Source: a virus
DNA: 64,000 nt
Virus record (IMG/VR): IMGVR_UViG_3300022562_000702
Direction: 5' to 3' (one strand)
The notes beneath the pieces were generated by a model. It did not search any database and had not been told where the DNA came from. It saw nothing but the letters and a program-made list of their open reading frames with translations. Position 1 is the first letter of the stretch. Each line of letters opens with the position of its first letter. This document shows, piece after piece, positions 43,957-61,104 of this stretch. The position numbers and the translations under genes are program-made.

Positions 43957-43993
43957 TCTGTGTCTCCTGTTCTATGTTCTGAGCCGGTGAGGC

Positions 43994-45589
43994 TTAGTTG
44001 TTGGGTTGAGGTTGAGGCTGAGTTGGCTGCTGAGTCGGCACAAACCCTTCAAACACCCGCATCAACGGAGAGTCAGCGGTGTTCGTCATGATCTGCCGAT
44101 AGCCGGGAGCGAGCTTCTGATACAACACATAGCGAGCAAACGCCTCACCATCGTTCCCCAGAGCTTCCACAGCTTTCTTCCAGCCTGCGGCCTGAGCGAC
44201 GTTCTCGAAGCCGATGATTGCGGCTTCTGCCTTCGCTTTGGCGAGAATTGCTTCAGCTTGATCTTTGGCCGCTGCCAACTCTTTCTCTGCAACTTCTTTG
44301 TCACGGTTGGCGTTTTCCAAAGCCACGCTTTGCTCTTCGTTGGCCTTCGTCACAGACTCCACAACGCTCTTGTCAGCACCGACGAGTTCTTGCCGTTGTT
44401 TGATCATGGCCTGTTCGGTCGCCAGCTTCGCTTCTTCGCTTTGCTGGAGAATCTGTTGTGTGTACTGTTTCAATTCCTGAGCAGCCACTTCTCGATCTCT
44501 CAGCGGGCCAGCGATGGCTTCCGGTGGTTTGATCTTCGTGATCAGGGCTTGGATGATCTCGATGCCTTGTGCGTCACAGGTCTCCGTAATGGACTTTTGG
44601 AACGCTTGTTGGAAGGCAGTACGAGTATCGCCGCCGATGAACTCACGAGCGGACGAGTTGGCTCCTTGCAAACGACAGAAGGCCCGAGCGTTCGGCATGA
44701 TCACCTTGGAGATGATTTCGTCTGCAATCGCACTGGAATCCCCCTTGTCATTGCTTATATCGTTGTAAGTAACGTATGTGTTGGCGGCGGTATCAGGCTT
44801 CACTCGAAATTCGATGATGCCATCCAGTGTAATTGGAAAGCCGTCCTTCGATGGGAACATCATGTCCCCGCCTTCGGCCAAGTTGAATCGCTGTGAGCGA
44901 GTATCGATGGCGTTGATGCGGTACATGTATGGATTCAGATAGTATGTCCCTTCATCGAGGGTCTTTTCCTGTGGCCCACGTTCGCCCGCCCCGACAAGCA
45001 GGACATTGGGTTCTTTCGGCATTGGGCCAGCAAGATTCGTGACGATTCCTTTGTAACCAGCGGGAATGATCTTCGGCTCCCACAGTTCAATCACTTCAAC
45101 ATAGTCCGATTTCTTTCGGGGCGTCCCCACTTCTTGCTTCGTCTCTTTGTCGATCACGATGGCATTGATGGCGTAACGACCGGGGCGAAGCACTTCTTCG
45201 ATGATCCCTTTTTGGTCCTCTGTCTTGGCAAGGAAATCGCCGGGCGGAAGGTCTTCGCCATACATGCGGATGCGAACGCCCATTTTGTCCCGAGGGATCT
45301 CGATCATCGGATAGACCGACCAGTCCCATGTCCAGCAATTGCGGAAGTAACGCCCTTCTGGCAGGACTGCGAGTTGGAGACCTTTGTGCTTGGCATCCGG
45401 GGCCACTTCTTGTTCGTTGTCGATGTTATCGCCAGTCTTGCGAGTCAAGACGGCGAAGTGCTTTGCGGGCACATCAATGCGGAACTGCTTGTAGACGATG
45501 TATGCTCCGAAGGTCAGCAAAATCACCATCACGCTGAGGGCCATCAGGCCGATTCTTCGCACACTTCGTTGTGTGTCACGATAAGTCAT
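43994..45589 (-). CDS. SPFH/band-7 family membrane protein, paralog of the preceding gene
   Basis: Same architecture: N-terminal transmembrane helix, LPEGRYFRNCW, C-terminal coiled coil AKLATEQAMIKQRQEL...AAAKDQAEAILAKAKAEAA. Confidence 0.6.
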   Translation of the reverse strand: MTYRDTQRSVRRIGLMALSVMVILLTFGAYIVYKQFRIDVPAKHFAVLTRKTGDNIDNEQEVAPDAKHKGLQLAVLPEGRYFRNCWTWDWSVYPMIEIPRDKMGVRIRMYGEDLPPGDFLAKTEDQKGIIEEVLRPGRYAINAIVIDKETKQEVGTPRKKSDYVEVIELWEPKIIPAGYKGIVTNLAGPMPKEPNVLLVGAGERGPQEKTLDEGTYYLNPYMYRINAIDTRSQRFNLAEGGDMMFPSKDGFPITLDGIIEFRVKPDTAANTYVTYNDISNDKGDSSAIADEIISKVIMPNARAFCRLQGANSSAREFIGGDTRTAFQQAFQKSITETCDAQGIEIIQALITKIKPPEAIAGPLRDREVAAQELKQYTQQILQQSEEAKLATEQAMIKQRQELVGADKSVVESVTKANEEQSVALENANRDKEVAEKELAAAKDQAEAILAKAKAEAAIIGFENVAQAAGWKKAVEALGNDGEAFARYVLYQKLAPGYRQIMTNTADSPLMRVFEGFVPTQQPTQPQPQPNN

Positions 45590-45667
45590 GGAATTCTCCT
45601 TGGGTTTTGTTCTGTGTTCGGTTTCAGTTTATCTCTTTCGACATGGGTTGCTGCGGCAGCCTCCTTT

Positions 45668-47416
45668 CTACTTGAACTTGATTCTGTAGAGTTTGCTACC
45701 ACGAGCAAAACGAGCTTCCGTGCCAACGTGACACAGCCGCATGTCTGATTCGATGGCGGGGTCATCAACCGATTTGATGTCGGGACGATCTTTCTTCGCC
45801 GAGAAGACCTCGATCTTTTCGTCTTCGGTGAGAGAAATAACGATTCCATTCTCCAACACGGTAAAGTTGATACCGGTGGGTGCGATGTTCTCCAGCTTGC
45901 GGAGATCATGGCTCGCCCAGTCCGTGGCGAATCTGTACACAAAGCGGTCATACTGACCAGATTCTTTGTGCATGGCAACAATCATTAAGACGTTGCCTTC
46001 GTACTTGGCCTCAGTTATACGGTATTCTTTAATTTCGTCAAGACGAATCTGGCGGTGGTGGCCTGCTGCGGGGAAGATCGACGCAACGTAATTGCCCATC
46101 ATGTCTTGGATCGCCACCCCCTGATACATCTCGGTGGCGTTCGGCAAGATGGTGGCGACCGACTTAGGCGCAGCTATCACCGTTGACCCCGCTTCGATGA
46201 AGTCAATCTCAAAGATGTGGTCGTTGCTCTGAACATACACTCGGCCTTCGCTGCTCATTAAAGTCTTGCCGAGCAGACCAACTTTGATGGGGGAGTCGCT
46301 GTCCAGATCTTGCAGGTGCAAAACTTCATCGTCGAGCCATGCAGCATAAGGAATGTTCCTGCTGGGCGTGAACCCAACACGGAACCTCTCAGCCGGGCGG
46401 TTCAGTTGTTTGCCACCGATATGCAACTTCTCACGAGTCACAACAACTTCTCGGCCATTGTGAGCATAGAAGCCAATGATCTGTTCGGCAAATTGCTTCA
46501 GTTCTGTGATGTCGAAGTTGTTGCTGCCGATGATCTCTTTCACCTTTGCCACGAAGGTCAGAATGGCTTGGAAGTCCTTCGGCGCAGCCGCACGTCGATT
46601 TTCGTTGAAGACGGCTCGATACCACTGCATGTAAGCACCGTCTTTGCCGCCCGGAATGTAATCCTCGAACGGACAGTAGACAGCACCTTTTGGATAATCG
46701 ACTTCAGGAAGCAAGACGGATTTGCAGTGTTGCATGTTGTCCGTCAACATCGTCTTCATGTTTGTGTAGTCCGGGTGGAACCCTTTGAAGGGGTGGATGC
46801 CGGTGAACATGTAGAAGCTGATGATGGCGAACGAGTACCAGTCCGAGAGTTCTGTAAACAGATAGCGGCCTGTCCCATCTTTGGCGACATGCCAATCTCG
46901 GATCGACGGCATGATGACTTCGGCGGGATAACTGGGTGTTTGGTAGCTGTTGGTGTCGATGCCATAGACATCATCGAAGGTGTCGGGCACCATGTAGTTG
47001 AACTCGTTCCCGTCCACTTGGAGGTAGCCTTTGTGGCTGTGGATGAATCGCACGATGCCAGCGATCTTCTGAACCAGCTTCATCATGTGATCTGGGGTAA
47101 CGCCTTCACGTTCACGGAAGGTCTTTGTGAGAATTTGGGCGAGCGGTTTGGGGTTGCCGGGGACGGCTCGCATGGTGTAGCCAGTGGGCTTCTTGCGATA
47201 AAGCAGCGTCTCTTGTGGAACGATGATGTTGGGGTGATCCAACACTCGAAGTTCTTGGAATTTGCCGGGCGGAATCATCTTCCCGTCTTCGCAAACCTTG
47301 TAGACAACATCACCGATGATGTAGATCGACCCTTCGCCACCCTTCGCTTTGAAGTGGGTATCATTGAGTTCAACTTTATCGCCGGTTCGTTCAATCGTAT
47401 AAGTAGGCATCACCAC
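45668..47416 (-). CDS. protein kinase-like domain protein (atypical)
   Basis: Gly-rich loop KGGEGSIY, followed by VYKV. Catalytic-loop-like VDGNEFN (D-x4-N). 582 aa. Confidence 0.4.
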   Translation of the reverse strand: MVMPTYTIERTGDKVELNDTHFKAKGGEGSIYIIGDVVYKVCEDGKMIPPGKFQELRVLDHPNIIVPQETLLYRKKPTGYTMRAVPGNPKPLAQILTKTFREREGVTPDHMMKLVQKIAGIVRFIHSHKGYLQVDGNEFNYMVPDTFDDVYGIDTNSYQTPSYPAEVIMPSIRDWHVAKDGTGRYLFTELSDWYSFAIISFYMFTGIHPFKGFHPDYTNMKTMLTDNMQHCKSVLLPEVDYPKGAVYCPFEDYIPGGKDGAYMQWYRAVFNENRRAAAPKDFQAILTFVAKVKEIIGSNNFDITELKQFAEQIIGFYAHNGREVVVTREKLHIGGKQLNRPAERFRVGFTPSRNIPYAAWLDDEVLHLQDLDSDSPIKVGLLGKTLMSSEGRVYVQSNDHIFEIDFIEAGSTVIAAPKSVATILPNATEMYQGVAIQDMMGNYVASIFPAAGHHRQIRLDEIKEYRITEAKYEGNVLMIVAMHKESGQYDRFVYRFATDWASHDLRKLENIAPTGINFTVLENGIVISLTEDEKIEVFSAKKDRPDIKSVDDPAIESDMRLCHVGTEARFARGSKLYRIKFK

Positions 47417-47545
47417 GCCCTTTCCGACACTTTGTCAGGTAGAAACCGTTTCCACAACCAGTAGTCCAACGCCTTATTCAAGGTGGACTTTTTCCAAGGC
47501 GGCTTCTTCCCGTCAGGCAAGAAGAGCCACCGTTTGTAGATCTTC

Positions 47546-48160
47546 TTAGCCTGTCTCCGTTTCATGATATCCGTAGAGTCCTCCGTTCTTGATGTAATCC
47601 CACACCTTGGAGTCAAGGTGCGCCGCAGCGAAGTCGTTGCGGCCTTCCCGGATCGCTGTACGAATATCGGTGGAACTGGCGTCGTTCTCGAAATCGAAGA
47701 CCTGATGTGGCTCGTGATTGAACCAGTCTGCCGTTTCGGGACAGCCATCCCGCCTGAGAACGATGAAGGGGAACTCTTGGATCAACAGATTTCCGTGAAT
47801 CCACTTCGTTTCGATGATGTTGGCATTGTCCATGCCAATGACGATGTGGAACTTGACATCTGGATACTCTTGCACGAGTTGCTGCATGGTCGAATACATC
47901 GACCCGTCGTGCCGGTGTGCGATCTCCCAGTCGAAGGCTCGCATGATCTCCCAGTCTTCACATGCCAAGGTGAGCATATTCCAACGATGGGATGATTCGA
48001 TGAGTTCAGAGTCCTTGCTGAAGAGGTGGCGATAGCAAGGCATGATCCATGTGGGGAGGCCGGTCTTTTGAAAGACCAAGCGTGCCATCAGTTCGTGGTG
48101 CAGTCCCGTGGGGTTGCATCCGCTGCCGAAGATCGCCGCCTCACCCTGTCGGATTCTCAT
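47546..48160 (-). CDS. nadD: nicotinate/nicotinamide mononucleotide adenylyltransferase
   Basis: FGSGCNPTGLHH (GxFxPxHxxH nucleotidyltransferase motif) and the SSTDIR motif (ISSTxIR of NadD). Confidence 0.6.
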   Translation of the reverse strand: MRIRQGEAAIFGSGCNPTGLHHELMARLVFQKTGLPTWIMPCYRHLFSKDSELIESSHRWNMLTLACEDWEIMRAFDWEIAHRHDGSMYSTMQQLVQEYPDVKFHIVIGMDNANIIETKWIHGNLLIQEFPFIVLRRDGCPETADWFNHEPHQVFDFENDASSTDIRTAIREGRNDFAAAHLDSKVWDYIKNGGLYGYHETETG

Positions 48161-49172
48161 GGATCACTCCTACTGCCACATCGTCTCCATTGAGCCAGTT
48201 GCGGCGGCGGAAAGTTCCCGCCTTGTCTTGTCGAAAGACCCAGTTCGATTGCAGTCTGGCGAAACCGGGCCGCACCGTCACAAAGTCCAGTAAGACACGC
48301 AACACGTCCAGCACACAGACAGGCTCGTTGTATTTGCGTCGAGGCGACTTCACGGGAATGTAAAACGCCTCGGGGCCATCCGAGCAGATGAACGTGAATT
48401 CGTAGTCATCTGCTGGGAAGACAAACTCATTGTATGGCTTGATTACTGAGAAGTTTTGCTCTTGGGTCGAAAATGTTACATGATTCGACCAAGCTCCCAT
48501 ACGCTCCTTAGAAGACGGCGGCTGGTCGGCCCATTCTGGAAATTCCATCTCCGGGCTGCGGATGTTCCCGAAGTAGGTGTGAATCTTGTATGTCTGCCCG
48601 AACTGCTCAATCCATTTCGGTGTTTCGCCGAACATCTGGTACTTGAGGTAGTATGGCCCACCGGGAAACTCAACGACATGAATCTTCCAGCGGCCATCAC
48701 GACGCCTTCCGCCGACAACACCATCGCCAACCAACAGGGCTCTATGGGAGTCGCCGACTTTGCGAAGAGTCCCCAGCGTGGCCGTCAGGCAAGCATCAGG
48801 AAGATTGGGGAATGCTCTCTGTTGGGTGCGGGACGTTGCCGACACGCCTTGCAGGAAGGCTTCTACGTTGTCTTGATAGATGTGCTCTTCTGCGGCCTTC
48901 GTCAAGATGCGTGACCCGAAGTCGGTGTGAATGCGAGGGCCACCAGCATTGGAACAACCATCTGAGATGATCGCATAGTCGCCACCATGAACAGCATAAT
49001 CTTCGCACACTTCGTGCGTTGTGCCTTGAACAAAAAACGAGTCTGTCAACATGGTAGTTTCTCCTCGACATACGGGGCAGAGCCAATCGCTCTCCCCGCT
49101 GTCCGTTCCATCAGAGATGAGTTTGAGATCGCTGAACGTCAGTCCGCAGGAATCGCACTGATCAGTCTTCAT
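48141..49172 (-). CDS. hypothetical protein with N-terminal zinc ribbon; possible PP2C-type phosphatase
   Basis: CDSCG...CPVCRG zinc ribbon. ISDGCSNAGG and KVGDSHRAL resemble PP2C DGHGG and GDSRA motifs. Confidence 0.3.
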   Translation of the reverse strand: MKTDQCDSCGLTFSDLKLISDGTDSGESDWLCPVCRGETTMLTDSFFVQGTTHEVCEDYAVHGGDYAIISDGCSNAGGPRIHTDFGSRILTKAAEEHIYQDNVEAFLQGVSATSRTQQRAFPNLPDACLTATLGTLRKVGDSHRALLVGDGVVGGRRRDGRWKIHVVEFPGGPYYLKYQMFGETPKWIEQFGQTYKIHTYFGNIRSPEMEFPEWADQPPSSKERMGAWSNHVTFSTQEQNFSVIKPYNEFVFPADDYEFTFICSDGPEAFYIPVKSPRRKYNEPVCVLDVLRVLLDFVTVRPGFARLQSNWVFRQDKAGTFRRRNWLNGDDVAVGVIHENPTG

Positions 49173-51234
49173 GGTCGTCCAGTGTCCTTAGCCAAGCAGC
49201 CGGGGACGCATCAGACGGCATTCTCCAGTCGCCACGAGGCGACAGGCTGACTGTTCCGACTTTTGGTCCATCAGGCACATCGTTCCGCTTGTATTGCTGA
49301 GCAAAGGCACGTTTGATGTTGACTCGCAACCAATGCTCCAGAGTGTGTTCGTCGTACTCACCTTCCCATCCCTCGGCTTGGAGACCGAGGTAGAGAATCT
49401 TCGCTGGGCTGAATCCGTTGCGGACGAAGTAGAACATCACGAAGTCATGGATCTCATAAGGTCCGATGGTCTCTTCGGTCGATTGTTCGATTTCGCCATC
49501 CGTACCGGCAGGCAGCAATTCGGGAGAGATTGTGGTGTGGGCGATGTCCATCAGCGTGACATATACTGGGTCGCCATCGAATCCCTGATGCGGCGGTTCG
49601 CCACCCTCTGTCTCGGCGATGTATTCGACGAGGAACTTCACCAGCGTCTTTGGCACAGAGCAGTTCACGTTGTACATGGATTGGTGGTCGCCGTTGAATG
49701 TACACCAACCCAACCACAATTCCGACATGTCGCCGGTGCCCAAAACGAAACCGTGGGACATCAGCACCAGCGTCCGTTGTCTTGCTTGCACATTCTCGAA
49801 GACGAGATCCCCTTTGTCCTTCTGCTCTTGCGAGAGATGGGCTAGAGCATCCACGAGGCATTCGACAGTGAAGTTTTCGAGATCGACGCTGGCATCAAAC
49901 ATGCCCATGCCGAACGGGTCGTGTCCAATGTCTTTGAAGACCTGCAAGCACGCCGGGCGAATATCGATTTCCTTCTGGGAGATTTCCAGAACATCCATCA
50001 GTCGCTTGGCGTTCTCCAGAGTCTTGTTGGTTGTGCCGAAGCCGGGCATGGTGATGCCCAGAATGTTCTTGCGAGGCAGGCCAAGCATGTCGAACGTCTT
50101 CACGGCAACCATGAGAGACAACGTGGAATCGAGTCCGCCCGAGATGCCAATTACAACTTTTGGATCAGGGCCGAGTTGTTCGAGCCGTTTCGCCAGAGCA
50201 CAAGTCTGGATGCCGAAGATCTCTGCACAACGAGAGTGCAACGTCTTCGGATCTTTGGGCACAAATGGCCGGGCATCGATCTTTCGCAACAATGGCGAAT
50301 CCATGTGATTCAACTTGAAGCTGACGTTCCGCTGTGAGTGCCCGGCCAGATATCGACGACCCTCGTTATAGCTGGTTGTGGTTCGTCGCTCTGTGTGGAG
50401 CTTCTCAACATCCACATCGGTTGAGGTCCAATAAGAGCCTCGATTTGGTGTCTTGCCGTTGCCTACTCGGTCGCTCTCGACCAACATGTGCCCGCCTTCT
50501 GCGATCAAACAGTGCCCGCCGAAGACAAGATCAGAGGTGCTCTCTGTGGGGCCGCAGCTTGCGTAGGCATAGGCGGCAACGCAACGGCCCGACTGCCCAA
50601 TCACCAGATTGCGGCGATAGTCGGGCTTGCCGATGGTTTCGTTGGACGCCGATGGATTCAAGAGAATGTTCGCCCCGGCGATGGCACTGAAGCTGGATGG
50701 CGGGATTGGCATCCAGATCGCTTCGCAGATCTCGATAGAGACGACGGCTTCGTGGGCATCCCCGACCGGGGCACGGAACAAAAGGTCTGTCCCAAACGGG
50801 ACGCTCCACTCTCCGAACTGAACACGAGTGTTTCGGTCGTTACGAGCCGAAGCAAACCAACGACCTTCGTAGAACTCGTTGTAAGTCGGGATGAATTCTT
50901 TCGGAACAAGGCCGATCACCCTGCCATCATGAAGCACGGCGGCACAGTTGTAGAGGGCGTTCTCGACTCGGAAGGGAAGTCCAACAACCACCAGTTCGTT
51001 GTTGACGTGTGACGCCAATTCGATGACGTTCTCGACGGCGGAATCGAGCAGTGCCTTCTGGTGAAACAGCTTGCCGCATGTGTAACCGGTGATGTTCAGT
51101 TCCGGGAACAGCACAATATCAGATTGAAGCTGCTCCAAGATGCGTGCCACTTCCGCCGTATTGGCGTCAGGATCGGCAACGACGATCTTGTTTGAGACAG
51201 TGGTTACTCGGACAAAGCTGTGGTTGGAGTTCAT
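49162..51234 (-). CDS. nadE: glutamine-dependent NAD+ synthetase (nitrilase domain + PP-loop synthetase)
   Basis: N-terminal carbon-nitrogen hydrolase domain (IVLFPELNITGY). C-terminal GISGGLDSTLSL PP-loop. A start at 51234 is preferred. Confidence 0.8.
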   Translation of the reverse strand: MNSNHSFVRVTTVSNKIVVADPDANTAEVARILEQLQSDIVLFPELNITGYTCGKLFHQKALLDSAVENVIELASHVNNELVVVGLPFRVENALYNCAAVLHDGRVIGLVPKEFIPTYNEFYEGRWFASARNDRNTRVQFGEWSVPFGTDLLFRAPVGDAHEAVVSIEICEAIWMPIPPSSFSAIAGANILLNPSASNETIGKPDYRRNLVIGQSGRCVAAYAYASCGPTESTSDLVFGGHCLIAEGGHMLVESDRVGNGKTPNRGSYWTSTDVDVEKLHTERRTTTSYNEGRRYLAGHSQRNVSFKLNHMDSPLLRKIDARPFVPKDPKTLHSRCAEIFGIQTCALAKRLEQLGPDPKVVIGISGGLDSTLSLMVAVKTFDMLGLPRKNILGITMPGFGTTNKTLENAKRLMDVLEISQKEIDIRPACLQVFKDIGHDPFGMGMFDASVDLENFTVECLVDALAHLSQEQKDKGDLVFENVQARQRTLVLMSHGFVLGTGDMSELWLGWCTFNGDHQSMYNVNCSVPKTLVKFLVEYIAETEGGEPPHQGFDGDPVYVTLMDIAHTTISPELLPAGTDGEIEQSTEETIGPYEIHDFVMFYFVRNGFSPAKILYLGLQAEGWEGEYDEHTLEHWLRVNIKRAFAQQYKRNDVPDGPKVGTVSLSPRGDWRMPSDASPAAWLRTLDDHED

Positions 51235-51247
51235 TGGGGTTCCTCTC

Positions 51248-51796
51248 TTAACCGTATGTGGGTTCGCCAAGATCGTATTCTGGTTCGTCGTCGTCGTCGT
51301 CGTCGTGATGGCCGAGTTCGCCGAACCGTTGTTCGAGTTCGGCACGCAATTCAGCAGGCAGGTCTTCCGGGTTGATCGGGATCATTCCGCCCCGACCTTC
51401 ACGAATGGCTTGTTGGATATGAGGCGGCAGCATGTGGAAGGGTGGAATCCCCATCACCGCTGTCATGATTCGTCCCCAGCGACCGGTCTGCGTGTGGATG
51501 GTGTCGAGGTCATCGACACGCACATAGAACTCGATCTCGCTTGCTTCCCATTCGTCGGTTGCCAACATCACCTTGAACGTCACAAGAGGGAAGACCCCTT
51601 CAATGACTTTTAGGTTGCTGGTAATCAGGCCGTCAAACCCCCGTCCCTTGATCCGCTGCGAAGTGCGACCATCTTCGAACATATCAACGGCGTTGTACAT
51701 GAGGATGTCACAGACTCGTGGAGTCAATGGCTTCCCAGTGTTGATCATGCAGTAAATGCCACCATGTCGTTCGGGGTCAGGGGTGAAGCCGCTCAT
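51248..51796 (-). CDS. hypothetical protein with poly-Asp C-terminus
   Basis: ORF between nadE and the Nudix gene. Internal start chosen to avoid overlap. Confidence 0.4.
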   Translation of the reverse strand: MSGFTPDPERHGGIYCMINTGKPLTPRVCDILMYNAVDMFEDGRTSQRIKGRGFDGLITSNLKVIEGVFPLVTFKVMLATDEWEASEIEFYVRVDDLDTIHTQTGRWGRIMTAVMGIPPFHMLPPHIQQAIREGRGGMIPINPEDLPAELRAELEQRFGELGHHDDDDDDEPEYDLGEPTYG

Positions 51797-52311
51797 TAGT
51801 CTCGTCTCCAAAGCTGTTTGAGGTAAAACAACACCTGATGGATCGGAATCCATGTCCGTTGATCTTCCGATTGTACCAGTGCTGCTAACTCATCCAAGGA
51901 AACCCATCGCCATCCTTTGCATTTCTTGGGCTCAAGTGGTTCGATCATTTCTTCGTCACCCTTCTTCTTCAGGGTGCCGCCGTGAAGGTAGTCGGCGATC
52001 AGGTAACATGTCACATAGATCGCCGAACCATCTGTTGATTTCTTCAGAATGTCATACGTCGTGAACAGGTCTTGGCGGTAGTGGTCGGGACTGAAGACCC
52101 GACACACCATGCCCGTCTCTTCTAAGACTTCACGTTCGCCGCAGTGAGCGAGGGTCGCATCAGTTGGATCGATATGCCCACCGGGAAAGGCATAGAGGCC
52201 AGCACCATGACTGCCTTGTCGCTCTCCAATCAAAACCTTCTGGCCTTTGACGACAATGACGCCGACACCGGCTTTGACTTGTGGTTCGACTTCTTTCTTC
52301 TTCTTCGTCAT
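51796..52311 (-). CDS. NUDIX hydrolase (candidate ADP-ribose or NADH pyrophosphatase)
   Basis: Nudix box GGHIDPTDATLAHCGEREVLEETGM. Confidence 0.8.
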   Translation of the reverse strand: MTKKKKEVEPQVKAGVGVIVVKGQKVLIGERQGSHGAGLYAFPGGHIDPTDATLAHCGEREVLEETGMVCRVFSPDHYRQDLFTTYDILKKSTDGSAIYVTCYLIADYLHGGTLKKKGDEEMIEPLEPKKCKGWRWVSLDELAALVQSEDQRTWIPIHQVLFYLKQLWRRD

Positions 52312-52613
52312 GGCAGCACCAATCTAATCAAGCTGAAAGCGACAATGTAGACGATTACAGGGAACAGAACGTGCATCGCCACAACGTGTTTGATTCCGGG
52401 GAATTGTCGAGCCCAATCTTCGTCGCCGTTCACGGCCCGCAGTCGTCTCTGCCAACCTCCGGGCGAGTTGAACCTGATGTCGTCCCACAGACACCGGAAA
52501 GGCAGTTCCCAGCCGCCCATGCCGCCGTTGATGAAGCATTCCAGTCCGTAGACCAGATACCACACTCCGAAGGCGATGATTGCTGCAAAGGCGACTGACA
52601 TTGTTACCACCAT
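52308..52613 (-). CDS. small membrane protein
   Basis: Two hydrophobic helices. Confidence 0.3.
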   Translation of the reverse strand: MVVTMSVAFAAIIAFGVWYLVYGLECFINGGMGGWELPFRCLWDDIRFNSPGGWQRRLRAVNGDEDWARQFPGIKHVVAMHVLFPVIVYIVAFSLIRLVLP

Positions 52614-52807
52614 AAAAGTTTCCAGAGGAATTTGATCGCAACGAGCATAGCCAACAAGACGATTACGACCAGCAGGCAACCGAAGCAACCGCTACCATCG
52701 CCGTCGCCGTCGTCATCTTTGTCTTCCTGCGCCGGTGGCGGTGGGGCCATCGTGGCAGTGCTCTTTCCATTTCCGTTGAATCGGTTTAGTCGAGGGTCAG
52801 GCTGCAT
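52604..52807 (-). CDS. small membrane protein
   Basis: C-terminal hydrophobic helix CLLVVIVLLAMLVAIKFLW. Confidence 0.3.
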   Translation of the reverse strand: MQPDPRLNRFNGNGKSTATMAPPPPAQEDKDDDGDGDGSGCFGCLLVVIVLLAMLVAIKFLWKLLWW

Positions 52808-54035
52808 GGTCTAACGGTGTCCCAAAGAAAGTCCAGTTCGCCACTCGTCGTGCATCGGGATCGCCGATTTGTTTGCCGGGCACATCGCTGAGCTTCACCA
52901 CCGGCACGCCCATGACCGACCACAATTTGATGACCATGTTGAGTGCCTTGCACTCGGGGAAGTCATTGGTCAGATGTGTGCCGATGCCGAAGGCTGTTTT
53001 GATCTTGCCTCGGAAATACTTCTCGATTTTCGCCGCCAACTCAGAGTCCAATCCGTCGCTGAACACAATTGTCTTCCCAAGCGGATCGATTCTCTGGCTG
53101 ATGTAGTGGTCAATGACCTGATCGCCGAACTTGTATGGGTCAGCGGAATCATGTCGCACACCGTCGAAAGCCCGTGCCAGCATTCCGACGAAATCGCCGA
53201 AGAATGCTTTGGTTCCAAAGGTGTCGGTCAGTGCGATACCCACTTCGCCGTTGAATGTTTCCATCCAGTCTTCGAGGACATAGCGGTTGGCATGACGCAA
53301 ACCACGCAGAACCGAATAGCCCATGAACATCTCGTGTGCCATCGTGCCGATGGGTTTCAGGCCATGTTTCATCGCCATGTGAACATTGCTGACGCCGACA
53401 AACTTGGGGTGGCACTCCTTGAGGGTGCGAACCACCAAATCCTGAACGTCATAGCTGTGTCGCCGACGCAGGCCAAACTCTGCCAAGATGCACGCTTGGA
53501 GGATCTCAGCTTTTGCCTTTGTCCGCTCCATGTAGCGGGTGGCCCAGTCGCCTTGTCGCCAGCTTGTCTCGCAGTGCTCGAAGAACAGTTCTGAGATCAA
53601 AGCCATGACGGGGACTTCCCACATCATGGCTGTTTCCCATGGACCTTTGAAGAAAGCCTCAAGCTCGCCTTCTGGTGTCAGTCGTGCTTCGACCTGTGAG
53701 GGGTCGTAACGAAAGTTCTTGATGAACTGGAGGAAGTGTGGACGGAGCCACGGCATTTCCTGATGGATGAAGTCCACTTCATCGTCACGAGTTCGCAGTT
53801 CTCCCATCGCCCGGATTTCCCGGTTGAAGGCATTCATGAATCCTTCGTTGAACTTCCCTTCGGGCCGACGATTGTTGAACCGGAACTCGACGGGCACTCC
53901 CGGATGGTGGCGAAGGATATTCGCACACATGTTGTACTTGTAAACATCTTGTTCAAGATTTGACCGGATAATGCTCATCATGTCTCCATCCCAAAATTTG
54001 TACTGAAGCGTCCCCGGAGGGACTCGAACCCTCAC
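52797..54035 (-). CDS. pncB: nicotinate phosphoribosyltransferase
   Basis: QDVYKYNM (PncB TDAYK..M motif) and GPWETAMMWEVPVMALISE (PncB GPWRE..LWEVPLLAVISE). 412 aa. Confidence 0.75.
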   Translation of the reverse strand: MRVRVPPGTLQYKFWDGDMMSIIRSNLEQDVYKYNMCANILRHHPGVPVEFRFNNRRPEGKFNEGFMNAFNREIRAMGELRTRDDEVDFIHQEMPWLRPHFLQFIKNFRYDPSQVEARLTPEGELEAFFKGPWETAMMWEVPVMALISELFFEHCETSWRQGDWATRYMERTKAKAEILQACILAEFGLRRRHSYDVQDLVVRTLKECHPKFVGVSNVHMAMKHGLKPIGTMAHEMFMGYSVLRGLRHANRYVLEDWMETFNGEVGIALTDTFGTKAFFGDFVGMLARAFDGVRHDSADPYKFGDQVIDHYISQRIDPLGKTIVFSDGLDSELAAKIEKYFRGKIKTAFGIGTHLTNDFPECKALNMVIKLWSVMGVPVVKLSDVPGKQIGDPDARRVANWTFFGTPLDHAA

Positions 54036-54083
54036 TCAGAGATTTAGAATCCCTTGCTCTAACCAATTGAGGCATACGGGGAC
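54009..54083 (-). tRNA. tRNA with anticodon CUA (amber-suppressor type); D-arm slightly non-canonical
   Basis: Folds by hand into a cloverleaf. Acceptor stem GTCCCCG/CGGGGAC, with U8. T-arm GAGGG-TTCGAGT-CCCTC. Anticodon stem AGGGA/TCTCT with loop TTCTAAA. D-arm GC(C)TC-AATTGGTTA-GAGC with one bulged C. No encoded CCA. Confidence 0.5.
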
Positions 54084-54086
54084 GTT

Positions 54087-54110
54087 GGTGGGGGCTGTTG
54101 CCAACCCCCG
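54087..54110 (-). terminator. GC hairpin (GGGGG...CCCCC) between the upstream gene and the tRNA
   Basis: Inverted repeat read in the sequence. Confidence 0.3.
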
Positions 54111-54115
54111 ACCTA

Positions 54116-54844
54116 TCAAAACGTCAGCGATTGCGAAGGGCCACCGCTGCCGAGGGCTTGCGACTGACTCTGAACGCTGGCACTGATGAAGTTCGCCAGC
54201 TTGGCGAGCGTCTTCTCGTTGGCGTCCGAGAGCGGAACGTACTGCGTGTACCCCACGGCCTGTGCGTGCCGCTTGAGTTCGGCTTGCACTCGGGCATCGT
54301 CGTTGACGCCGATGAGGATCGACATCACCGATTCGAGGGCTTCGCAGGACACCGCATCAGCCATCGCCTGAACGGCGGCGTCTTCCACGATGTTCTGTCC
54401 CGGAGTGTAGTGGGCACCGTCTGTGATTCCGTAGATGATCCCGTTGACCATATACCGCTTCGCAGCTTGCTGCTCGGCGTAGTCGATCATCGCACGGAGC
54501 ACGTTCTCTTCGCACCCGTACAAGTTGGTGCAACCACCGCCAGCCCAGCAACCGTCGTAGTCGTCTTCGTGACAATCGACTTGCGGCTTGTAGCCGTGGA
54601 ACTCACGGACCTGATCGTCGAAGTGGACTTGCCGATAGAGCAGTTTGTCGGCGACCGGCGAGTGTCGGAGGGACTTGACCACTTCCTTGATGCAGAGTTC
54701 CATCTGGCGAGCGTATCTGCGGGTTGAACCGCTCTCGTCGAAGAACGCCGTGGCGATGGTGTTGTCCACGTTGGTCAGGTCGTCAATGGGCGTCCCGGTG
54801 TAACCGAATCCGCCGCCCGGAATTGTGAAACTTTGCGAAGTCAT
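54116..54844 (-). CDS. von Willebrand factor A (vWA)-like domain protein
   Basis: MIDAS-like FFDESGST (DxSxS) and a later GITDGAHY. Confidence 0.4.
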   Translation of the reverse strand: MTSQSFTIPGGGFGYTGTPIDDLTNVDNTIATAFFDESGSTRRYARQMELCIKEVVKSLRHSPVADKLLYRQVHFDDQVREFHGYKPQVDCHEDDYDGCWAGGGCTNLYGCEENVLRAMIDYAEQQAAKRYMVNGIIYGITDGAHYTPGQNIVEDAAVQAMADAVSCEALESVMSILIGVNDDARVQAELKRHAQAVGYTQYVPLSDANEKTLAKLANFISASVQSQSQALGSGGPSQSLTF

Positions 54845-54903
54845 GGTTTGGATCTCCCTCTGAGTTGTAGGCTAACCGAAGTGCGGGCCGCTGTGCTGCC
54901 CGC

Positions 54904-55881
54904 TTACGCCTTCAGTTCACGGATCAGGTCGTTGGTCTTCATCACCCGAGCACCTCGGTTGACCATCTCGTCCAAGAAGTCGAGACGCCACTGTCCGAAG
55001 TCGGGACCACCGGGCACGTTGCCCACAGGAGCCGAGGCATCTTCGACGAAGACACACTTGGTGATGAATTCGTTCTTCTTGCCTTTCGCTTTGTCTTCGT
55101 CGGTCGGCTCGAAGAAGTCCACGGCGTCGAGGCCGGTCCACTTCAGGCAGTGGCTCCCTGCCCAGCCGGTCCAGATAACGAGGTCTGCCCGCATCACGTT
55201 CTGGACGCACGGAGCATTCATCTGGGTTGCCGGAACGGTCGGATCGGGCACGTCGGCCTTCAGGGCGGAATAGTGTTCCGTCCACTGGAACTGGCCTTTG
55301 GTGATCCAGTCGATCCAGCCGCCAGTGCGACGAGTCCAACGACTGTACGCATCCATGAGCGGCTTGTAGACCTGATTGCCCCATGTGCCGATCAGGCAGT
55401 GGGCGGGCCACAAGCAGAGTGGGTTGCGACCGAAATCTTCGAGGGCCTTCGTGTACTTGAGAGCCCATTCGAGCGGAGCGACCTTCTTGCCTTCCCACAC
55501 GCCGTAGGCGAAGTTCGGCACGAAGTTCTGAGCCACCACGTCGGCGTGAGTGACGATCTGGAACGGGTTCGCCATGTTCCCGGCTCGATCTTGCCAGACG
55601 TTGTTGTGGGCACCATCGTTCTCGTGGTGGCAGTCGAGCGACGGGTGGATCTGATCGATCCGATGGCGACGGGAATCGGCAGGGTCGGCGAGTTCGTCGA
55701 TCAGGCGGGCGACGTTGAACGCTTCCTGATCTGCACCAACGACTTGTAAGGCCCCCGGTCTTGGTCCATTACCCGGCGAAGGCCAATCTGCGGGTTCGTT
55801 GCCACTGGCACAGAAGTCGTTCTGTCCGTCAATGACGAACATATCGACTCGTTTCGCATTGCGAAAGAAGCTGTCCGACAT
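54904..55881 (-). CDS. pncA: isochorismatase-family hydrolase, likely nicotinamidase
   Basis: VDMFVIDGQNDFC (D-x-QNDFC motif of the PncA/isochorismatase family). A candidate catalytic Cys in GSHCLKW. 325 aa, longer than canonical PncA. Confidence 0.5.
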   Translation of the reverse strand: MSDSFFRNAKRVDMFVIDGQNDFCASGNEPADWPSPGNGPRPGALQVVGADQEAFNVARLIDELADPADSRRHRIDQIHPSLDCHHENDGAHNNVWQDRAGNMANPFQIVTHADVVAQNFVPNFAYGVWEGKKVAPLEWALKYTKALEDFGRNPLCLWPAHCLIGTWGNQVYKPLMDAYSRWTRRTGGWIDWITKGQFQWTEHYSALKADVPDPTVPATQMNAPCVQNVMRADLVIWTGWAGSHCLKWTGLDAVDFFEPTDEDKAKGKKNEFITKCVFVEDASAPVGNVPGGPDFGQWRLDFLDEMVNRGARVMKTNDLIRELKA

Positions 55882-55943: not shown

Positions 55944-56522
55944 TCAGGAGCGTAAAGCAGAAATGGCAGGTTGCAGATCGTCCCAGACGCTCTTTTTAGC
56001 GGAGGGCTGCCTCAGAAGGTAAGATGGGTGATATGTGCATGTGACCTTTCGGCCTTCGTATTCGTGGGTTTTCCCTCGCAAAGAGCCGATTGTGGTGTCT
56101 GGTTCTTGCCCTAGTAGGAAAACCGAAGCGATCCGCCCAAAACAGATGATCCATTTGGGATCAACGCATTTGATCTGCATATCAAGAAATTTTCGGCAGT
56201 TTGCGGCTTCCTCGGGTTTGGGGTCTCGATTCCCCGGTGGGCGGCATTTCAGGATGTTGGCGATGAACACGTCATCTCTTGTCCACCCTGCCGCCGCAAG
56301 AATGTTGGTGAGAAGCTGACCAGCTTTCCCCACAAATGGGACGCCTTGCTCAGCCTCATTCTGGCCGGGAGCCTCACCAAGCACGAACAGGTCGGCGTTA
56401 GCATTGCCGACTCCGGGAACTGTTTTCCAGCCGCTTGCAACCCTCAGTTCTGAGAGTTCTTGGCACAATGTACAGTTCGCAATCTTTTGGTCCAAAATTT
56501 GTAATGCTTCGCTTTTCAGCAT
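55944..56522 (-). CDS. family-4 uracil-DNA glycosylase
   Basis: GEAPGQNEAEQGVPFVGKAG and HPSYLLR motifs. Confidence 0.85.
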   Translation of the reverse strand: MLKSEALQILDQKIANCTLCQELSELRVASGWKTVPGVGNANADLFVLGEAPGQNEAEQGVPFVGKAGQLLTNILAAAGWTRDDVFIANILKCRPPGNRDPKPEEAANCRKFLDMQIKCVDPKWIICFGRIASVFLLGQEPDTTIGSLRGKTHEYEGRKVTCTYHPSYLLRQPSAKKSVWDDLQPAISALRS

Positions 56523-56543
56523 CCTTGCTCTCCAAATGAAAAC

Positions 56544-56561
56544 GGCCCTCCGAAGAGGGCC
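56544..56561 (-). terminator. rho-independent terminator on minus strand (GGCCCTC/GAGGGCC stem, T-run on the minus strand)
   Basis: Read in the sequence. Confidence 0.5.
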
Positions 56562-56567
56562 ATTGTA

Positions 56568-56819
56568 TTAGTCGGAATCAACGTAATCAATCCCGAATGG
56601 ATCGTCGTCGCCGTCCTTCCACCAGTCGGCGGGGTCACGGTTTTTTCGTTTGCGTTCTTTTTGTTCTTCCTTGAGTTCTCTGAAAGCCGCTCGAAGAGCA
56701 CATGCGTTGACGACGTGTCCCAACAGTAAGCCGATGCAAATTCCAATGATCAAAAACAAAAATCCGTCAGACATCCTTGTCCCCTTCTTTCCTATAGAGC
56801 TTCCGGCACTCCTTTGCAA
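56568..56819 (-). CDS. small membrane protein
   Basis: Hydrophobic segment FLFLIIGICIGLLLGHVV. Confidence 0.3.
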   Translation of the reverse strand: MQRSAGSSIGKKGTRMSDGFLFLIIGICIGLLLGHVVNACALRAAFRELKEEQKERKRKNRDPADWWKDGDDDPFGIDYVDSD

Positions 56820-57634
56820 AGGTCGCTGGTGATGACAACAAGTGGCTTCTTGCCTTCGAAGATCACCTCTTCTCGGTTGTGAATGCGAGACATTGGAACA
56901 AAGTCCTCTTCAACCACTGCTGTTCGCTTGATGGTCAAATTGGGGTTTTGGTGAGCGTGGTGCTTCGGCGGAAGAGCAGAAAGTTCTTCTGTCGTGAACG
57001 CACGCTCGACATCCCGGCGTCTCACATAAGTTCCTCGCTTGAAGAAGCGGGGATACTCTGCCCACTTGACTCCTTTTTGGAACAGCAGTTCGTGCAAAGC
57101 CGACGTGTCTTTGCCGTGCAGTTCTTCATGTGAGTAGTAGGCCCTCGCCGCCATTTGCAATGAGTTTCGAGTGGCGTCGTTCTCTCGCCAGATGAAGTAG
57201 TTACACGCTTCATACAAGACAGGCACTTCCCAGACACGGTTGTCGAAGAGAGCCATCTTGTCGGCGTGACTGGGGATATAGTCTGGCAACAGCTTGTTGA
57301 AGAAGTAGGTTGCCAGCGATCCCACGACAGAACACATCTTCGACAACTTGCCTCCGAAGAAGATTTCTGAGTCGGGATCTTCAGTCAGCCAGACCAACGA
57401 AATTTCATCGCTTTGCGTGTATCCGCAGCGAGCGTTCGTCTCTTCAACAAGAAACTTGGTCGTCTCGATCATCAGTCGAGACAGACGGTCATCGTAAGGT
57501 CGCTCCAGACCTTTCGTGAAGCTGTGAAAGGCTCGTCCGTCCACCCGTGCCAACACGGGGACCATCGGCATCATTTCATGGGCGTACCGTTTCTCGTACC
57601 ATTTCATCCGGTCGCCAAGCGAAGTTGTGTCCAT
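56792..57634 (-). CDS. Thg1-like protein (tRNA-His guanylyltransferase family 3'-5' nucleotidyltransferase)
   Basis: N-terminal MKWYEKRYAHEMMPMVPVLARVDGRAFHSFTKGLERPYDDRLSRLMIETTKFLV...GYTQSDEISLVWL. This fits the Thg1 pattern KFEYV...RIDGxxFxxFS...xxSDExS. Confidence 0.6.
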   Translation of the reverse strand: MDTTSLGDRMKWYEKRYAHEMMPMVPVLARVDGRAFHSFTKGLERPYDDRLSRLMIETTKFLVEETNARCGYTQSDEISLVWLTEDPDSEIFFGGKLSKMCSVVGSLATYFFNKLLPDYIPSHADKMALFDNRVWEVPVLYEACNYFIWRENDATRNSLQMAARAYYSHEELHGKDTSALHELLFQKGVKWAEYPRFFKRGTYVRRRDVERAFTTEELSALPPKHHAHQNPNLTIKRTAVVEEDFVPMSRIHNREEVIFEGKKPLVVITSDLCKGVPEAL

Positions 57635-57675
57635 GATTTACCTCCATGTAAAGGACACGAGTGAACCGTTTAGGT

Positions 57676-58575
57676 TCAGTCGTCGAATCCGCCGCCGCTG
57701 TCCCAGCCGCCACCATCATCGTAGCTGCTTCCGCCATCGTCGTAGGACGGCGGATCAGGGTCGGGGATATAGGTGTCTCGTTTGGTGTCATCCTCGAAGT
57801 CGAAGCTCTCATCGGTTACTTCCGCAGGAGCCTCATCGGGAACGTCTTCGACGATGGGTTGAGTCAAAATCGGTTCGGGCTCGGGTTCCGGTATTGGTGC
57901 CGGTTCAGGCTCGGGTGCCGGTGTTGGATCAGCCGTCACATCGTCGAAGATTCGCTCGTCGATAGGTGGACGATCATCAGGGAACTCGTAGGCTGGCATC
58001 TCGTAGTTGTCGTAGTAGTCGAACGGTTCATGGAACCCATCGAAGATGAAGTAGTAGAACAACAGAGCATCGAGCATGTCGTCATCGCCGAACATACTTT
58101 CTTCACGCAGCCAATCTCGATTGGCCCGCTTGTCTCTGTCGCTGTAGTGATCGAAGGCGTTGCTGCCGATGATGCGTTCTACGAAACCGATACGCCAGAC
58201 GCCGGTGTGTCCGCCATACCTTGTTGCCATTTCAGGGCTGAAGTAATCGCCTTCAAAGCAAGCTTGGCCCACGAAATCAGCATTCTGCAAGTTGACACAA
58301 CGTGGGTCGGCATCAACCACCATCGTCACCCGAAAGTTCTGAGGGCCAAATGGCGTGAGTGCCCACACCATGTCGTTGACGTTGAGATCGTATGCGAGTT
58401 GTTTGCGACCCTCATTGTTTAAGAAGAGAGGTGCCCCCAACCCGGTGCCGTTCTCGCCGATGTCTGATTCGGGCTCTGTGGTCTCTTCGCTGCTGCTCGA
58501 TCTTGTGCCAATTAGGATGGCGACAATCACAGCAATGATGGACAACACAATCAGGAAGATGAGGGCATTGGTCAT
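57676..58575 (-). CDS. membrane-anchored protein with acidic Pro-rich C-terminal tail
   Basis: N-terminal transmembrane helix. C-terminal PEPEPAPIPEPEPEP and D/G/S-rich tail. Confidence 0.45.
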   Translation of the reverse strand: MTNALIFLIVLSIIAVIVAILIGTRSSSSEETTEPESDIGENGTGLGAPLFLNNEGRKQLAYDLNVNDMVWALTPFGPQNFRVTMVVDADPRCVNLQNADFVGQACFEGDYFSPEMATRYGGHTGVWRIGFVERIIGSNAFDHYSDRDKRANRDWLREESMFGDDDMLDALLFYYFIFDGFHEPFDYYDNYEMPAYEFPDDRPPIDERIFDDVTADPTPAPEPEPAPIPEPEPEPILTQPIVEDVPDEAPAEVTDESFDFEDDTKRDTYIPDPDPPSYDDGGSSYDDGGGWDSGGGFDD

Positions 58576-60378: not shown

Positions 60379-60407
60379 TTGCCAAATTTCCCGGCAACTA
60401 TTAAAAT
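60379..60407 (+). promoter_or_regulatory. sigma70-type promoter (TTGCCA - 17 nt - TAAAAT)
   Basis: Read in the sequence. An ATG at 60415 and a GGAGG + ATG at 60430 both follow. Confidence 0.45.
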
Positions 60408-60429
60408 CGACGGCATGGAGGTCTCGATT

Positions 60430-61104
60430 ATGCAAGTTCACGACGTGGACGTGATTCCGGTAGAAAACGAATCGGGGGAGCTTTCAGACACCTTCTATCG
60501 AAACTGCCACTTCTGTAAGAAAATCGTCAGAATCACACCTTCCAACCTCAAATCCTGCCTGCAACTGGGTGGCCCCAACTTCTACTGCCCGTTTTGCTTA
60601 AGAAACAACCACCACTACAAATCGGCCCAAAATATCCTGATCATGTCGTACCGGGGAATCATCGGTTACTACTATCTGGAGTTTTATCAAGGGACCAATC
60701 CAAGACAGAAGGTCTGGTACTCGGAGATTGTGCGAACCATCGAACGCCATGTGTCTGTGGGACTTCAGAGCCCCGTCTTCACTTATGATCCGGGCACGTT
60801 CTTATGGTTCGTTGACTTCAACAGAATTGGCGCAGGGCGAAAGAAAGCCCCCATTGAGGAAGTCAAACAAGTCTCCGAAGCGATCCTCAAGGAGTTTGAT
60901 CTCCAACGCTACATCAGCACATTCGCCGAGACTGACGTTTGGGATCGGTTCGACAAAGCCATCGATGCCTTCTATTCGCAACGCAAGCGACCCAAAGACA
61001 GAAGAATGCTGATCCCAACTCTGAAGGGATTCAACAACTTCCAGAAGGACGGCTTCTGGGAGAGGACGAGAGATTTCCGGCCAGCCAACATGGTCCTCAA
61101 ATAA
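60430..61104 (+). CDS. hypothetical protein with CxxC...CxxC zinc-binding pattern
   Basis: A start at 60430 (Shine-Dalgarno GGAGG 8 nt upstream) is preferred over the TTG at 60379. An alternative leaderless ATG lies at 60415. Confidence 0.45.
   Translation: MQVHDVDVIPVENESGELSDTFYRNCHFCKKIVRITPSNLKSCLQLGGPNFYCPFCLRNNHHYKSAQNILIMSYRGIIGYYYLEFYQGTNPRQKVWYSEIVRTIERHVSVGLQSPVFTYDPGTFLWFVDFNRIGAGRKKAPIEEVKQVSEAILKEFDLQRYISTFAETDVWDRFDKAIDAFYSQRKRPKDRRMLIPTLKGFNNFQKDGFWERTRDFRPANMVLK

Follow-up and report, generated by a model that had tools for sequence, protein, structure and literature searches.

Which reaction would be catalyzed by the product of the phage gene at positions 56792..57634 of IMG/VR record IMGVR_UViG_3300022562_000702, and on which RNA? 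The gene lies in a stretch of 64,000 nucleotides (nt), hereafter the window, and was initially annotated as a Thg1-like 3′-5′ nucleotidyltransferase. A tRNA gene, an RNA-ligase-like gene and a HAD phosphatase gene noticed in the same stretch were read, together with it, as a tRNA end-repair toolkit, possibly directed against host tRNA-targeting nucleases. The analysis reported here favors, with a probability of about 0.7, that the product is a Thg1-like protein (TLP) of the bacterial type, catalytically competent and encoded by a very large phage, and that it would repair 5′-shortened tRNAs by 3′-5′ nucleotide addition. The evidence comes from the family, the fold and the active site of the protein, and from the genes found near it in related phages.

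Family and fold of the TLP

The open reading frame (ORF) occupies exactly the interval initially annotated, on the minus strand, which had been left unstated, and it contains the three peptides quoted as a family signature: MKWYEKRYAHE (residues 10–20), ARVDGRAFHSFTKG (residues 29–42) and SDEISLVWL (residues 75–83). The search with profile PF04446, whose gathering cut-off is 29.2 bits, gave a score of 97.7 (E 6.3e-28), with profile positions 2–130 of 130 covered, and PHROG 4717, named 'tRNA-His guanylyltransferase', was matched with E 3.4e-83. The other profile suggested as a check, the C-terminal model PF14413, scored 18.7 bits and stayed under its cut-off of 26.3. The closest solved structure by sequence was the TLP of Bacillus thuringiensis (BtTLP, 4kgk), with E 7.8e-39 over residues 5–210; the matches to archaeal TLP (4.7e-13) and to Candida (2.3e-12), yeast (8.4e-11) and human (1.4e-5) Thg1 were weaker. 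More than 7,600 homologues were collected at E ≤ 1e-10.

An AlphaFold2 model built from 46 homologues reached a mean predicted local confidence (pLDDT) of 91.3 and a pTM of 0.87, and is confident to about residue 270. When it was compared with the PDB by Foldseek, the 32 matches with E ≤ 1e-3 were, all 32 of them, Thg1 or TLP structures. BtTLP chains held ranks 1–8, the top one with E 1.6e-20 and a TM score of 0.82 on target, while other palm-domain proteins (GGDEF, cyclases, Cas10) appeared only at E > 6e-3. In spite of the PF14413 score, the C-domain is present: the sequence alignment extends to BtTLP residue 208 of 245, and the model superposes on BtTLP chains over 247–262 alignment columns with TM scores of 0.80–0.83 on target. 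The predicted layout consists of a palm/Thg1 N-domain (residues ~5–140), a C-domain (~140–225) and a C-terminal segment (~220–270). So, from the alignments and the model, the product is assigned as a bacterial-type TLP with a polymerase-palm-like (RRM-type) fold, and the assignment to the family is as secure as sequence analysis allows. Neither of the two findings named in the initial annotation as contrary to it, lack of a profile match or loss of the conserved carboxylates, applies.

Active site and C-terminal segment

The residues of the active site were mapped with the BtTLP alignment and the residue roles described by Hyde et al. 2013 (PMC3701042), and their conservation was followed in alignments of 18 and 46 sequences of the clade. 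The expected carboxylates are present. The metal-binding D32 and D76 and the third carboxylate E77 correspond to D30, D75 and E76 of BtTLP, and to D29, D76 and E77 of human Thg1 (hTHG1). The residues that in BtTLP contact or support the triphosphates (E12, R28, S74, K99, R131 and R147) are E14, R30, S75, K99, R133 and R150 in the phage protein, BtTLP K99 being presumably the equivalent of K96 of yeast Thg1 (ScThg1). All nine residues (E14, R30, D32, S75, D76, E77, K99, R133 and R150) do not vary in either alignment. H37 and M161, which align with BtTLP H35 and M158, are not conserved across the clade.

The sole departure at the active site concerns the lysine that positions ATP (ScThg1 K44, BtTLP K43), which is Arg45 in the phage protein (codon 57502–57500). 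Position 45 is either R or K across the clade, with arginine in most of the phage-clade members. In BtTLP, the K43A mutation lowered the ATP-dependent activation about 8-fold and left the GTP-dependent one unchanged (PMC3701042). Since the catalytic and nucleoside triphosphate (NTP)-binding residues are present and only Arg45 deviates, the TLP can be considered catalytically intact and of the bacterial type.

The bacterial type is also apparent outside the catalytic center. The motif HINNLYN separates Thg1 from TLPs. In the alignments, HINNLYN of Candida Thg1 falls on TRNSLQM of the phage protein and SKNSISM of BtTLP, so that the motif of the eukaryotic type is absent, and Met161 sits where eukaryotic Thg1 has an asparagine (hTHG1 158, ScThg1 161). 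Beyond the C-domain, a segment conserved in the phage clade, with the consensus LPPKH...NPDL..RT.V.EE.FPP....NR.EV (residues ~220–265), is predicted in the AlphaFold2 model as an extra beta-hairpin plus a helix. Among 46 homologues with 55–76% identity there are 44 invariant columns, all the catalytic residues included, and by this measure the TLP is under purifying conservation.

RNA ligases and other genes near TLPs of related phages

The genes around TLPs were surveyed in 90 loci with flanks of up to 10 kb, 80 of them from IMG/VR, and clustering of the TLPs at 60% identity gave 36 clusters. An Rnl5-like RNA ligase was found in the flank of 12 loci, on the TLP strand every time. In nine of the 90 loci (L008, L010, L011, L023, L028, L053, L063, L070 and L078), which belong to seven of the 36 clusters, the ligase and the TLP gene are no more than 1.1 kb apart, with the ligase on either side. 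Of the 13 cases with a ligase in the flank, nine are this close, against 2.07 expected for the flank lengths in a positional simulation (P = 2e-5). In L008, L010 and L011, a ligase of 372–381 amino acids fills the slot that in the window holds a 299-residue protein. The ligases of L008 and L010 were confirmed with PF09414 and the PHA02142 OB domain, and that of L010 resembles the Naegleria Rnl5 ligase (NgrRnl, 5cot; E 4e-14). The linkage of TLP to RNA ligase is recurrent in these relatives, and it lends some ground to the initial idea of a joint role in repair.

Another gene related to RNA lies just beyond the window, on the TLP strand. It encodes a class-II nucleotidyltransferase of 753 residues with a PolyA_pol head domain (E 1.9e-19), an RNA-binding domain and a weak HD-like region at the N-terminus, and by sequence it is similar to both poly(A) polymerases (PAP) and CCA-adding enzymes. 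In L007 and L008, too, this gene is located upstream, 7.4–7.5 kb from the TLP gene; in L010 the upstream distance is about 9.4 kb, and the gene is cut by the edge of the locus. The nearness of this CCA-adding/PAP-family gene is in favor of a connection of the TLP with RNA repair.

Unbiased clustering of all the ORFs within 3 kb of TLP genes gave other recurrent neighbors. A uracil-DNA glycosylase (UDG) was found in 12 loci and four clusters, and DNA methylases and NAMPT/NAPRTase recurred about as often as the ligase; HD and calcineurin-type phosphoesterases and a PF10127-type nucleotidyltransferase also recurred at comparable rates. Within the same 3 kb no P-loop kinase family recurred beside phage TLP genes, unlike in bacterial operons.

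Two side observations concern these neighbors. In the 379-kb viral contig of L078, the gene directly downstream of the TLP (10840–12975) encodes a ligase of 711 residues with an insert similar to LAGLIDADG homing endonucleases or inteins (I-SceI-like, E 1e-14). In L080, the UDG is fused to an apparent exonuclease region of a DNA polymerase.

Proposed role of the TLP in tRNA repair

By homology with BtTLP, the substrate would be the 5′-monophosphate end of a tRNA with a shortened 5′ strand. ATP or GTP would activate the 5′ phosphate to give a 5′-App- or 5′-Gpp-RNA intermediate, the incoming NTP would pair with the 3′ strand of the acceptor stem, and its 3′-OH would attack the activated end. Pyrophosphate would then be removed from the new 5′ end, and the cycle would be repeated until the stem is filled, so that host and/or phage tRNAs would stay usable during infection. 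The TLP would be one scattered part of the RNA repair of a jumbo phage, together with the CCA/PAP-family enzyme 7.5 kb away and a distant minimal ligase. The kinetics of BtTLP is consistent with such a substrate, as activation of a 5′-truncated tRNA proceeds with ATP at 0.91 per min, whereas the rates measured on full-length tRNA-His without G-1 are 0.046 per min with GTP and ~0.0007 per min with ATP (PMC3701042).

BtTLP (4KGK/4KGM; Hyde et al. 2013, PMC3701042), the best match of the phage TLP in both sequence and structure, shares with it the three carboxylates, the NTP-contacting Arg, Lys and Ser, the Met in place of the eukaryotic Asn and the lack of HINNLYN. The phage protein is ~36% identical to BtTLP, differs from it by Arg45 for Lys43, is 35 residues longer, with the extra C-terminal segment, and is encoded by a phage rather than a bacterium. 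Archaeal TLP (5AXK–5AXN, tRNA-bound) and eukaryotic Thg1 (human 3OTB, Candida 3WBZ) have in common with it the palm-like fold and the two-metal carboxylates, at a far weaker similarity (E 5e-13 to 1e-5). Archaeal complexes 5AXM and 5AXN illustrate templated 3′-5′ addition on the acceptor stem of tRNA (PMC4820378), while eukaryotic Thg1, which has the HINNLYN motif absent here, places G-1 opposite A73 in a non-templated reaction. A functional analogue is the pair of T4 Pnkp and Rnl1, phage enzymes that restore the tRNAs hit by abortive-infection nucleases. T4 heals and seals breaks of the anticodon loop, whereas the TLP would rebuild the 5′ strand of the acceptor stem; in contrast with T4, no kinase-phosphatase of the Pnkp type was found here, and the components are dispersed in the window without forming an operon.

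Concerning phages, TLP homologues were found in 164 deposited records, mostly genomes of 150–630 kb. The members of PHROG 4717 include Pseudomonas phage 201phi2-1 gp319, Caulobacter phage CcrColossus/CcrPW, Cronobacter phage GAP32 gp147 and Bacillus phage Bc431v3 gp143; all are known from annotation alone, and those of jumbo phages share with the TLP studied its length and the C-terminal segment. The first phage Thg1 homologue to be annotated was that of 201phi2-1 ('putative Thg1'). The homologue of Bc431v3 was counted in 2013 among 'highly unusual genes' and suggested to modify phage or host tRNAs (PMC3601020). Anantharaman, Iyer and Aravind included the 201phi2-1 protein in 2010 in a study in which tRNA repair was proposed from bacterial operons of Thg1, polynucleotide kinase, Macro and RNA ligase genes, with the kinase as the partner that accompanies bacterial Thg1 most persistently (PMC2904730). 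Iyer et al. 2021 found Thg1 to be sporadic in jumbo-phage groups 2 and 3, and listed it with RNA ligases, HAD phosphatases, a CCA-adding enzyme and phage tRNAs as acting against tRNA-targeting host nucleases (PMC7824862). The idea of a repair toolkit is then already published in general form for jumbo phages (PMC2904730, PMC7824862), and the gene alone is one more divergent member of a family already annotated and interpreted in this manner. What the analysis adds is a quantified adjacency of TLP and Rnl5-like ligase in relatives, and the conserved CCA/PAP-family gene nearby.

Several points weigh against tRNA repair by the TLP. None of the genes adjacent to it in the window is related to RNA (they encode the UDG, enzymes of nicotinamide adenine dinucleotide (NAD) salvage, membrane or acidic proteins without assignment and tetratricopeptide repeat proteins), and no polynucleotide kinase was found either in the window or as a recurrent neighbor of TLPs. 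In four isolated jumbo phages, the TLP neighbors are only hypothetical proteins, with no RNA-repair genes. The UDG, methylase and NAMPT/NAPRTase genes recur near TLPs like the ligase, and therefore the TLP may sit in a general module of auxiliary functions or nucleotide metabolism. As Arg45, which is R or K in the clade, replaces BtTLP K43, the preference for the activating nucleotide may differ from that of BtTLP, and activation of the 5′ end may be shifted towards GTP. Finally, the literature searched contained no biochemical or other experimental work on any phage TLP, and no host nuclease that trims the 5′ ends of tRNAs was identified in the analysis. If such a nuclease exists, its antidote would be expected in TLP-bearing phages.

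A more specific proposal, which we regard as rather improbable, is that TLP and Rnl5-type ligase form a two-enzyme pathway of 3′-5′ filling and sealing that would counter a so far undescribed class of host defense nucleases able to excise or trim the 5′ strand of tRNA. The TLP would rebuild the missing 5′-side nucleotides in a break of duplex RNA, for example in the acceptor stem, and would leave a 5′-monophosphate; the ligase would then join the rebuilt 5′ end to the upstream 3′-OH. In the present phage, where a different gene would have taken the place of the adjacent ligase, the role of partner would fall to the minimal ligase at 12.5 kb. The adjacency of both genes in nine of 90 loci and seven of 36 lineages offers a concrete pair of enzymes, and the loci that encode them, to be assayed.

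Alternative roles of the TLP

The name 'tRNA-His guanylyltransferase', given to all the annotated phage homologues, suggests that the TLP could add G-1 opposite C73 of phage or host tRNA-His that has lost G-1 or never kept it, and so restore its recognition by histidyl-tRNA synthetase. BtTLP does activate and extend full-length tRNA-His without G-1 using GTP, although it strongly prefers 5′-truncated substrates (PMC3701042). Inventories of tRNA genes were made in the window and in 20-kb loci. In L018, a distance of 312 nt separates the TLP gene from a tRNA-His gene upstream of it; however, only two of the 174 tRNAs in the TLP flanks are tRNA-His, and the window has no tRNA-His gene. In both of those genes G-1 is already encoded, opposite C73, which is the situation in bacteria whose RNase P keeps it, and a role of the TLP in tRNA-His maturation need therefore not be invoked. 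The replacement of HINNLYN by TRNSLQM, which matches SKNSISM of BtTLP, points in the same direction. All in all, a role in tRNA-His maturation seems to us unlikely.

We are slightly more doubtful about a dedicated, cooperating cassette of TLP, tRNA, RNA ligase and HAD phosphatase, evolved against a host tRNA-targeting nuclease. The four elements can be located in the window, and their cooperation would be plausible from the adjacency of ligase and TLP in relatives and from the published view of RNA repair in jumbo phages (PMC7824862). Nevertheless, the tRNA, the ligase-like gene and the HAD-like gene lie 2.7, 44 and 50 kb away from the TLP gene, the last two on the opposite strand, with structural, NAD-pathway or defense-evasion genes in between. 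No ligase or kinase is adjacent to and co-oriented with the TLP, the slot of the ligase of relatives being filled by the unrelated 299-residue protein, and no kinase was found. Since the neighbors of the TLP are the UDG, NAD-salvage genes and proteins without assignment, the window is devoid of a repair cassette, and the toolkit did not hold up as a physical unit. As a functional notion it is reasonable and partly supported, but the organization of the genes in the window does not support it.

The three elements were considered one by one. The ligase-like gene is real, as judged from its PF09414 match (Table 1), yet it shares no cassette with the TLP at its distance and orientation; it encodes a minimal RNA-ligase-family nucleotidyltransferase that gave weak, co-linear tblastn matches. 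A longer, spurious antisense ORF (12549–13349) overlies it, the next gene (13352–14107, plus) has a weak match to the CYTH domain (E 0.012), and a homologue of this short ligase in L061 (1905–2555) lies between a tRNA-Cys gene and two tRNA-Tyr genes. Two other ORFs were rejected as RNA ligases: one of 314 residues (3465–4409, LKNDG), with no Pfam support and no PDB match, and one of 241 residues (60379–61104, IKIDG), with no Pfam support. With respect to the HAD phosphatase, a candidate ORF with the corresponding motif exists, presumably the one meant in the initial annotation (6308–6682), but its Pfam HAD matches (E 0.018–0.32) were all under cut-off. A cytidylyltransferase-like gene (47546–48160) was ruled out as an RNA nucleotidyltransferase, as it corresponds to NadD.

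The tRNA gene is real as well, although it is of the amber-suppressor type, its 5′ end is intact and paired, with nothing in need of repair, and nothing ties it specifically to the TLP. Its acceptor stem, GUCCCCG/CGGGGAC, is perfectly paired, with G as the discriminator, and resembles that of tRNA-Glu; the D-arm is irregular, with extra nucleotides, and the Rfam tRNA score is modest (38.8 bits). The label 'Pyl' given by ARAGORN is due solely to the anticodon. L005–L008 and L011 also have a tRNA(CUA) downstream of the TLP, about as far from it as in the window or closer. Another copy occurs in L081, and the sequences differ strongly among contigs. This tRNA was rejected as a substrate of 5′ editing: the acceptor stem is correctly paired in it and in four relatives, and bases -1 and 73 follow no consistent pattern. 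Recoding of TAG was also rejected for the window, where ORFs of the standard code tile densely and a sense TAG barely lengthens them. TAG terminates 15 of 81 window ORFs, the TLP gene among them, and readthrough of the TLP stop would gain only 13 residues.

The TLP could also rebuild the 5′ end of some other structured RNA, such as a small RNA, a transcript of the phage or a duplex with a nick or gap, and possibly hand over a 5′-monophosphate end to a nick-sealing ligase of the Rnl5 type. Rnl5 ligases seal 3′-OH/5′-PO4 nicks in duplex RNA, and the ligases adjacent to TLPs are NgrRnl-like. Within 10 kb of the TLP, tRNA genes occur in 27 of 91 loci (directly flanking it in L018, L063 and L047), which leaves 64 of the 91 without one, and Anantharaman et al. 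2010 considered small RNAs as targets of repair, and ligation by way of a 5′-App intermediate (PMC2904730). Against this, the bacterial and archaeal TLPs characterized all act on tRNA acceptor stems, the phage protein keeps the fold and the tRNA-contacting C-domain, and Rfam detected no candidate RNA in the window, so that a substrate other than tRNA appears quite improbable. Least of all can the gene be taken for an irrelevant passenger, whether a moron gained recently or a copy in the course of decay: for all its sporadic occurrence among jumbo phages (PMC7824862) and its variable neighborhoods, the chance is minimal in view of the invariant columns, the catalytic residues among them, the strong Shine-Dalgarno sequence, the synteny with relatives and the number of homologues.

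Organization of the TLP gene region

The coordinates of the features discussed are given in Table 1. The TLP stop is followed by the gene of a 68-residue membrane protein, probably co-transcribed with the TLP gene, and then by a terminator-like hairpin, which makes the TLP gene one of the last in a transcription unit on the minus strand. Neither Pfam nor PHROG profile searches gave an assignment for the 68-residue protein, which was also called as a gene on L005/L006; an ORF of 65–70 residues occupies the matching position in L007, L009 and L010, where position only was compared. Upstream of the TLP, the 299-residue protein has no family in Pfam or PHROG, and L007 has a homologue in the same position (297 residues, 35% identity, E 5e-34). 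That it could be a degenerate ligase was ruled out, as it has no similarity to the RNA ligases of relatives.

Table 1. Positions of the TLP gene and of other features in the window (or in the locus named).
Feature	Coordinates	Strand	Remarks
TLP coding sequence	56792..57634	minus	280 aa; ATG at 57634, TAG stop at 56794-56792
Shine-Dalgarno GGAGG	57641..57645	minus	6 nt upstream of TLP ATG; direct sequence reading
299-aa protein gene	57676..58575	minus	upstream of TLP; N-terminal transmembrane helix, acidic Pro/Gly-rich tail
Single-pass membrane protein gene, 68 aa	56568..56774	minus	begins 17 nt past TLP stop
Intrinsic-terminator-like hairpin	56541..56564	minus	strong; 10-bp stem, 6 G-C pairs, T-rich tail
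Family-4-type UDG-superfamily gene	55944-56522	minus	downstream of 68-aa gene
Weakly nicotinamidase-like ORF	54904-55881	minus	PDB 2h0r, E 0.0018
tRNA, anticodon CUA (amber-suppressor type)	54008-54083	minus	sole tRNA gene in window; 2.7 kb from TLP
NAPRTase	52797-53972	minus	
NUDIX	51796-52311	minus	
Glutamine-dependent NAD synthase	49162-51345	minus	
NadD (nicotinic acid mononucleotide adenylyltransferase)	47546-48160	minus	PDB 8aih, 3.6e-20
Minimal RNA-ligase-family nucleotidyltransferase	12528-13181	plus	217 aa; motif I VKYDGSN; PF09414 39.2 bits vs cut-off 27, E 1e-9
HAD-like ORF	6308-6682	plus	124 aa; motif I VDFDGT; PDB 2obb 'hypothetical protein', E 1.5e-23
Class-II nucleotidyltransferase	L005 254-2515 (window coordinates 65120-67381)	TLP strand	753 aa; 7.5 kb upstream of TLP
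tRNA(CUA), other copy	L007 14314-14388		
tRNA(CUA), other copy	L008 13311-13384		
tRNA(CUA), other copy	L011 7429-7503		
tRNA(CUA), other copy	L081 16187-16261		
UDG within 3 kb of TLP		TLP strand	window and 11 loci: L005-L008, L023, L028, L032, L040, L055, L067, L080

Past the UDG come two ORFs without assignment, one of them weakly nicotinamidase-like, and then the tRNA, NAPRTase, NUDIX, NAD synthase, PP2C-like and NadD genes. A complete Preiss-Handler set for NAD+ salvage is contained here on one strand (47546–55881, minus). Conserved also in the relatives L007 and L008, the set may serve to restore NAD+ against NAD-depleting host defenses.

Host phage and other contents of the window

T4-like genes in the window, for the tail sheath, the tail tube and the baseplate, confirmed the phage context supposed in the initial annotation. 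Besides the T4-like baseplate, the structural genes comprise three tail-tube paralogues, the tail sheath, a sheath stabilizer and a head-tail adaptor; there is also a sigma-factor-like gene, and the auxiliary genes include those of CTP synthase, sugar-modifying enzymes, DNA methylases, two SPFH and two NUDIX proteins. PHROG searches with 20 window ORFs lacking assignment gave one match, to a head-tail adaptor, and none related to RNA.

No nucleotide-level match of the window to any deposited phage was obtained, and the TLPs of deposited phages have at most 52% identity to the one studied. An identical TLP is present on JGI and Logan metagenome contigs, and the nearest other homologues, with 74–76% identity, are metagenomic, on unannotated contigs of up to 693 kb. 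Synteny is conserved with relatives whose TLPs are 62–74% identical; one of them is L007 (ENA ERZ26692762 ctg84252, 693,098 bp), the fetched neighborhood of which is syntenic with the window. The lack of a deposited DNA match, the metagenomic origin of the nearest homologues and the syntenic 693-kb contig indicate that the phage belongs to a huge, uncultured lineage, and its genome is that of a very large, myovirus-like phage. Another close TLP relative, P0061, is on a contig of 691,316 bp; the two contigs of ~690 kb, if complete, would be among the largest phage genomes known.

Two other groups of genes in the window deserve mention. A homologue of the anti-Pycsar protein Apyc1, a cyclic-nucleotide phosphodiesterase of metallo-beta-lactamase fold, is encoded at 10790–11650 on the minus strand (PF23023, 105.5 bits against a cut-off of 50). 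The region 42349–49172, also on the minus strand, contains tandem SPFH/Band-7 paralogues of 535 and 531 residues, followed by a 582-residue protein with a faint protein-kinase signal and by the PP2C-like phosphatase. Kinase-like and PP2C-like genes are present also at the L008 and L010 loci, and a PP2C-like gene in L007 too; both products may constitute a phage Ser/Thr signaling pair.

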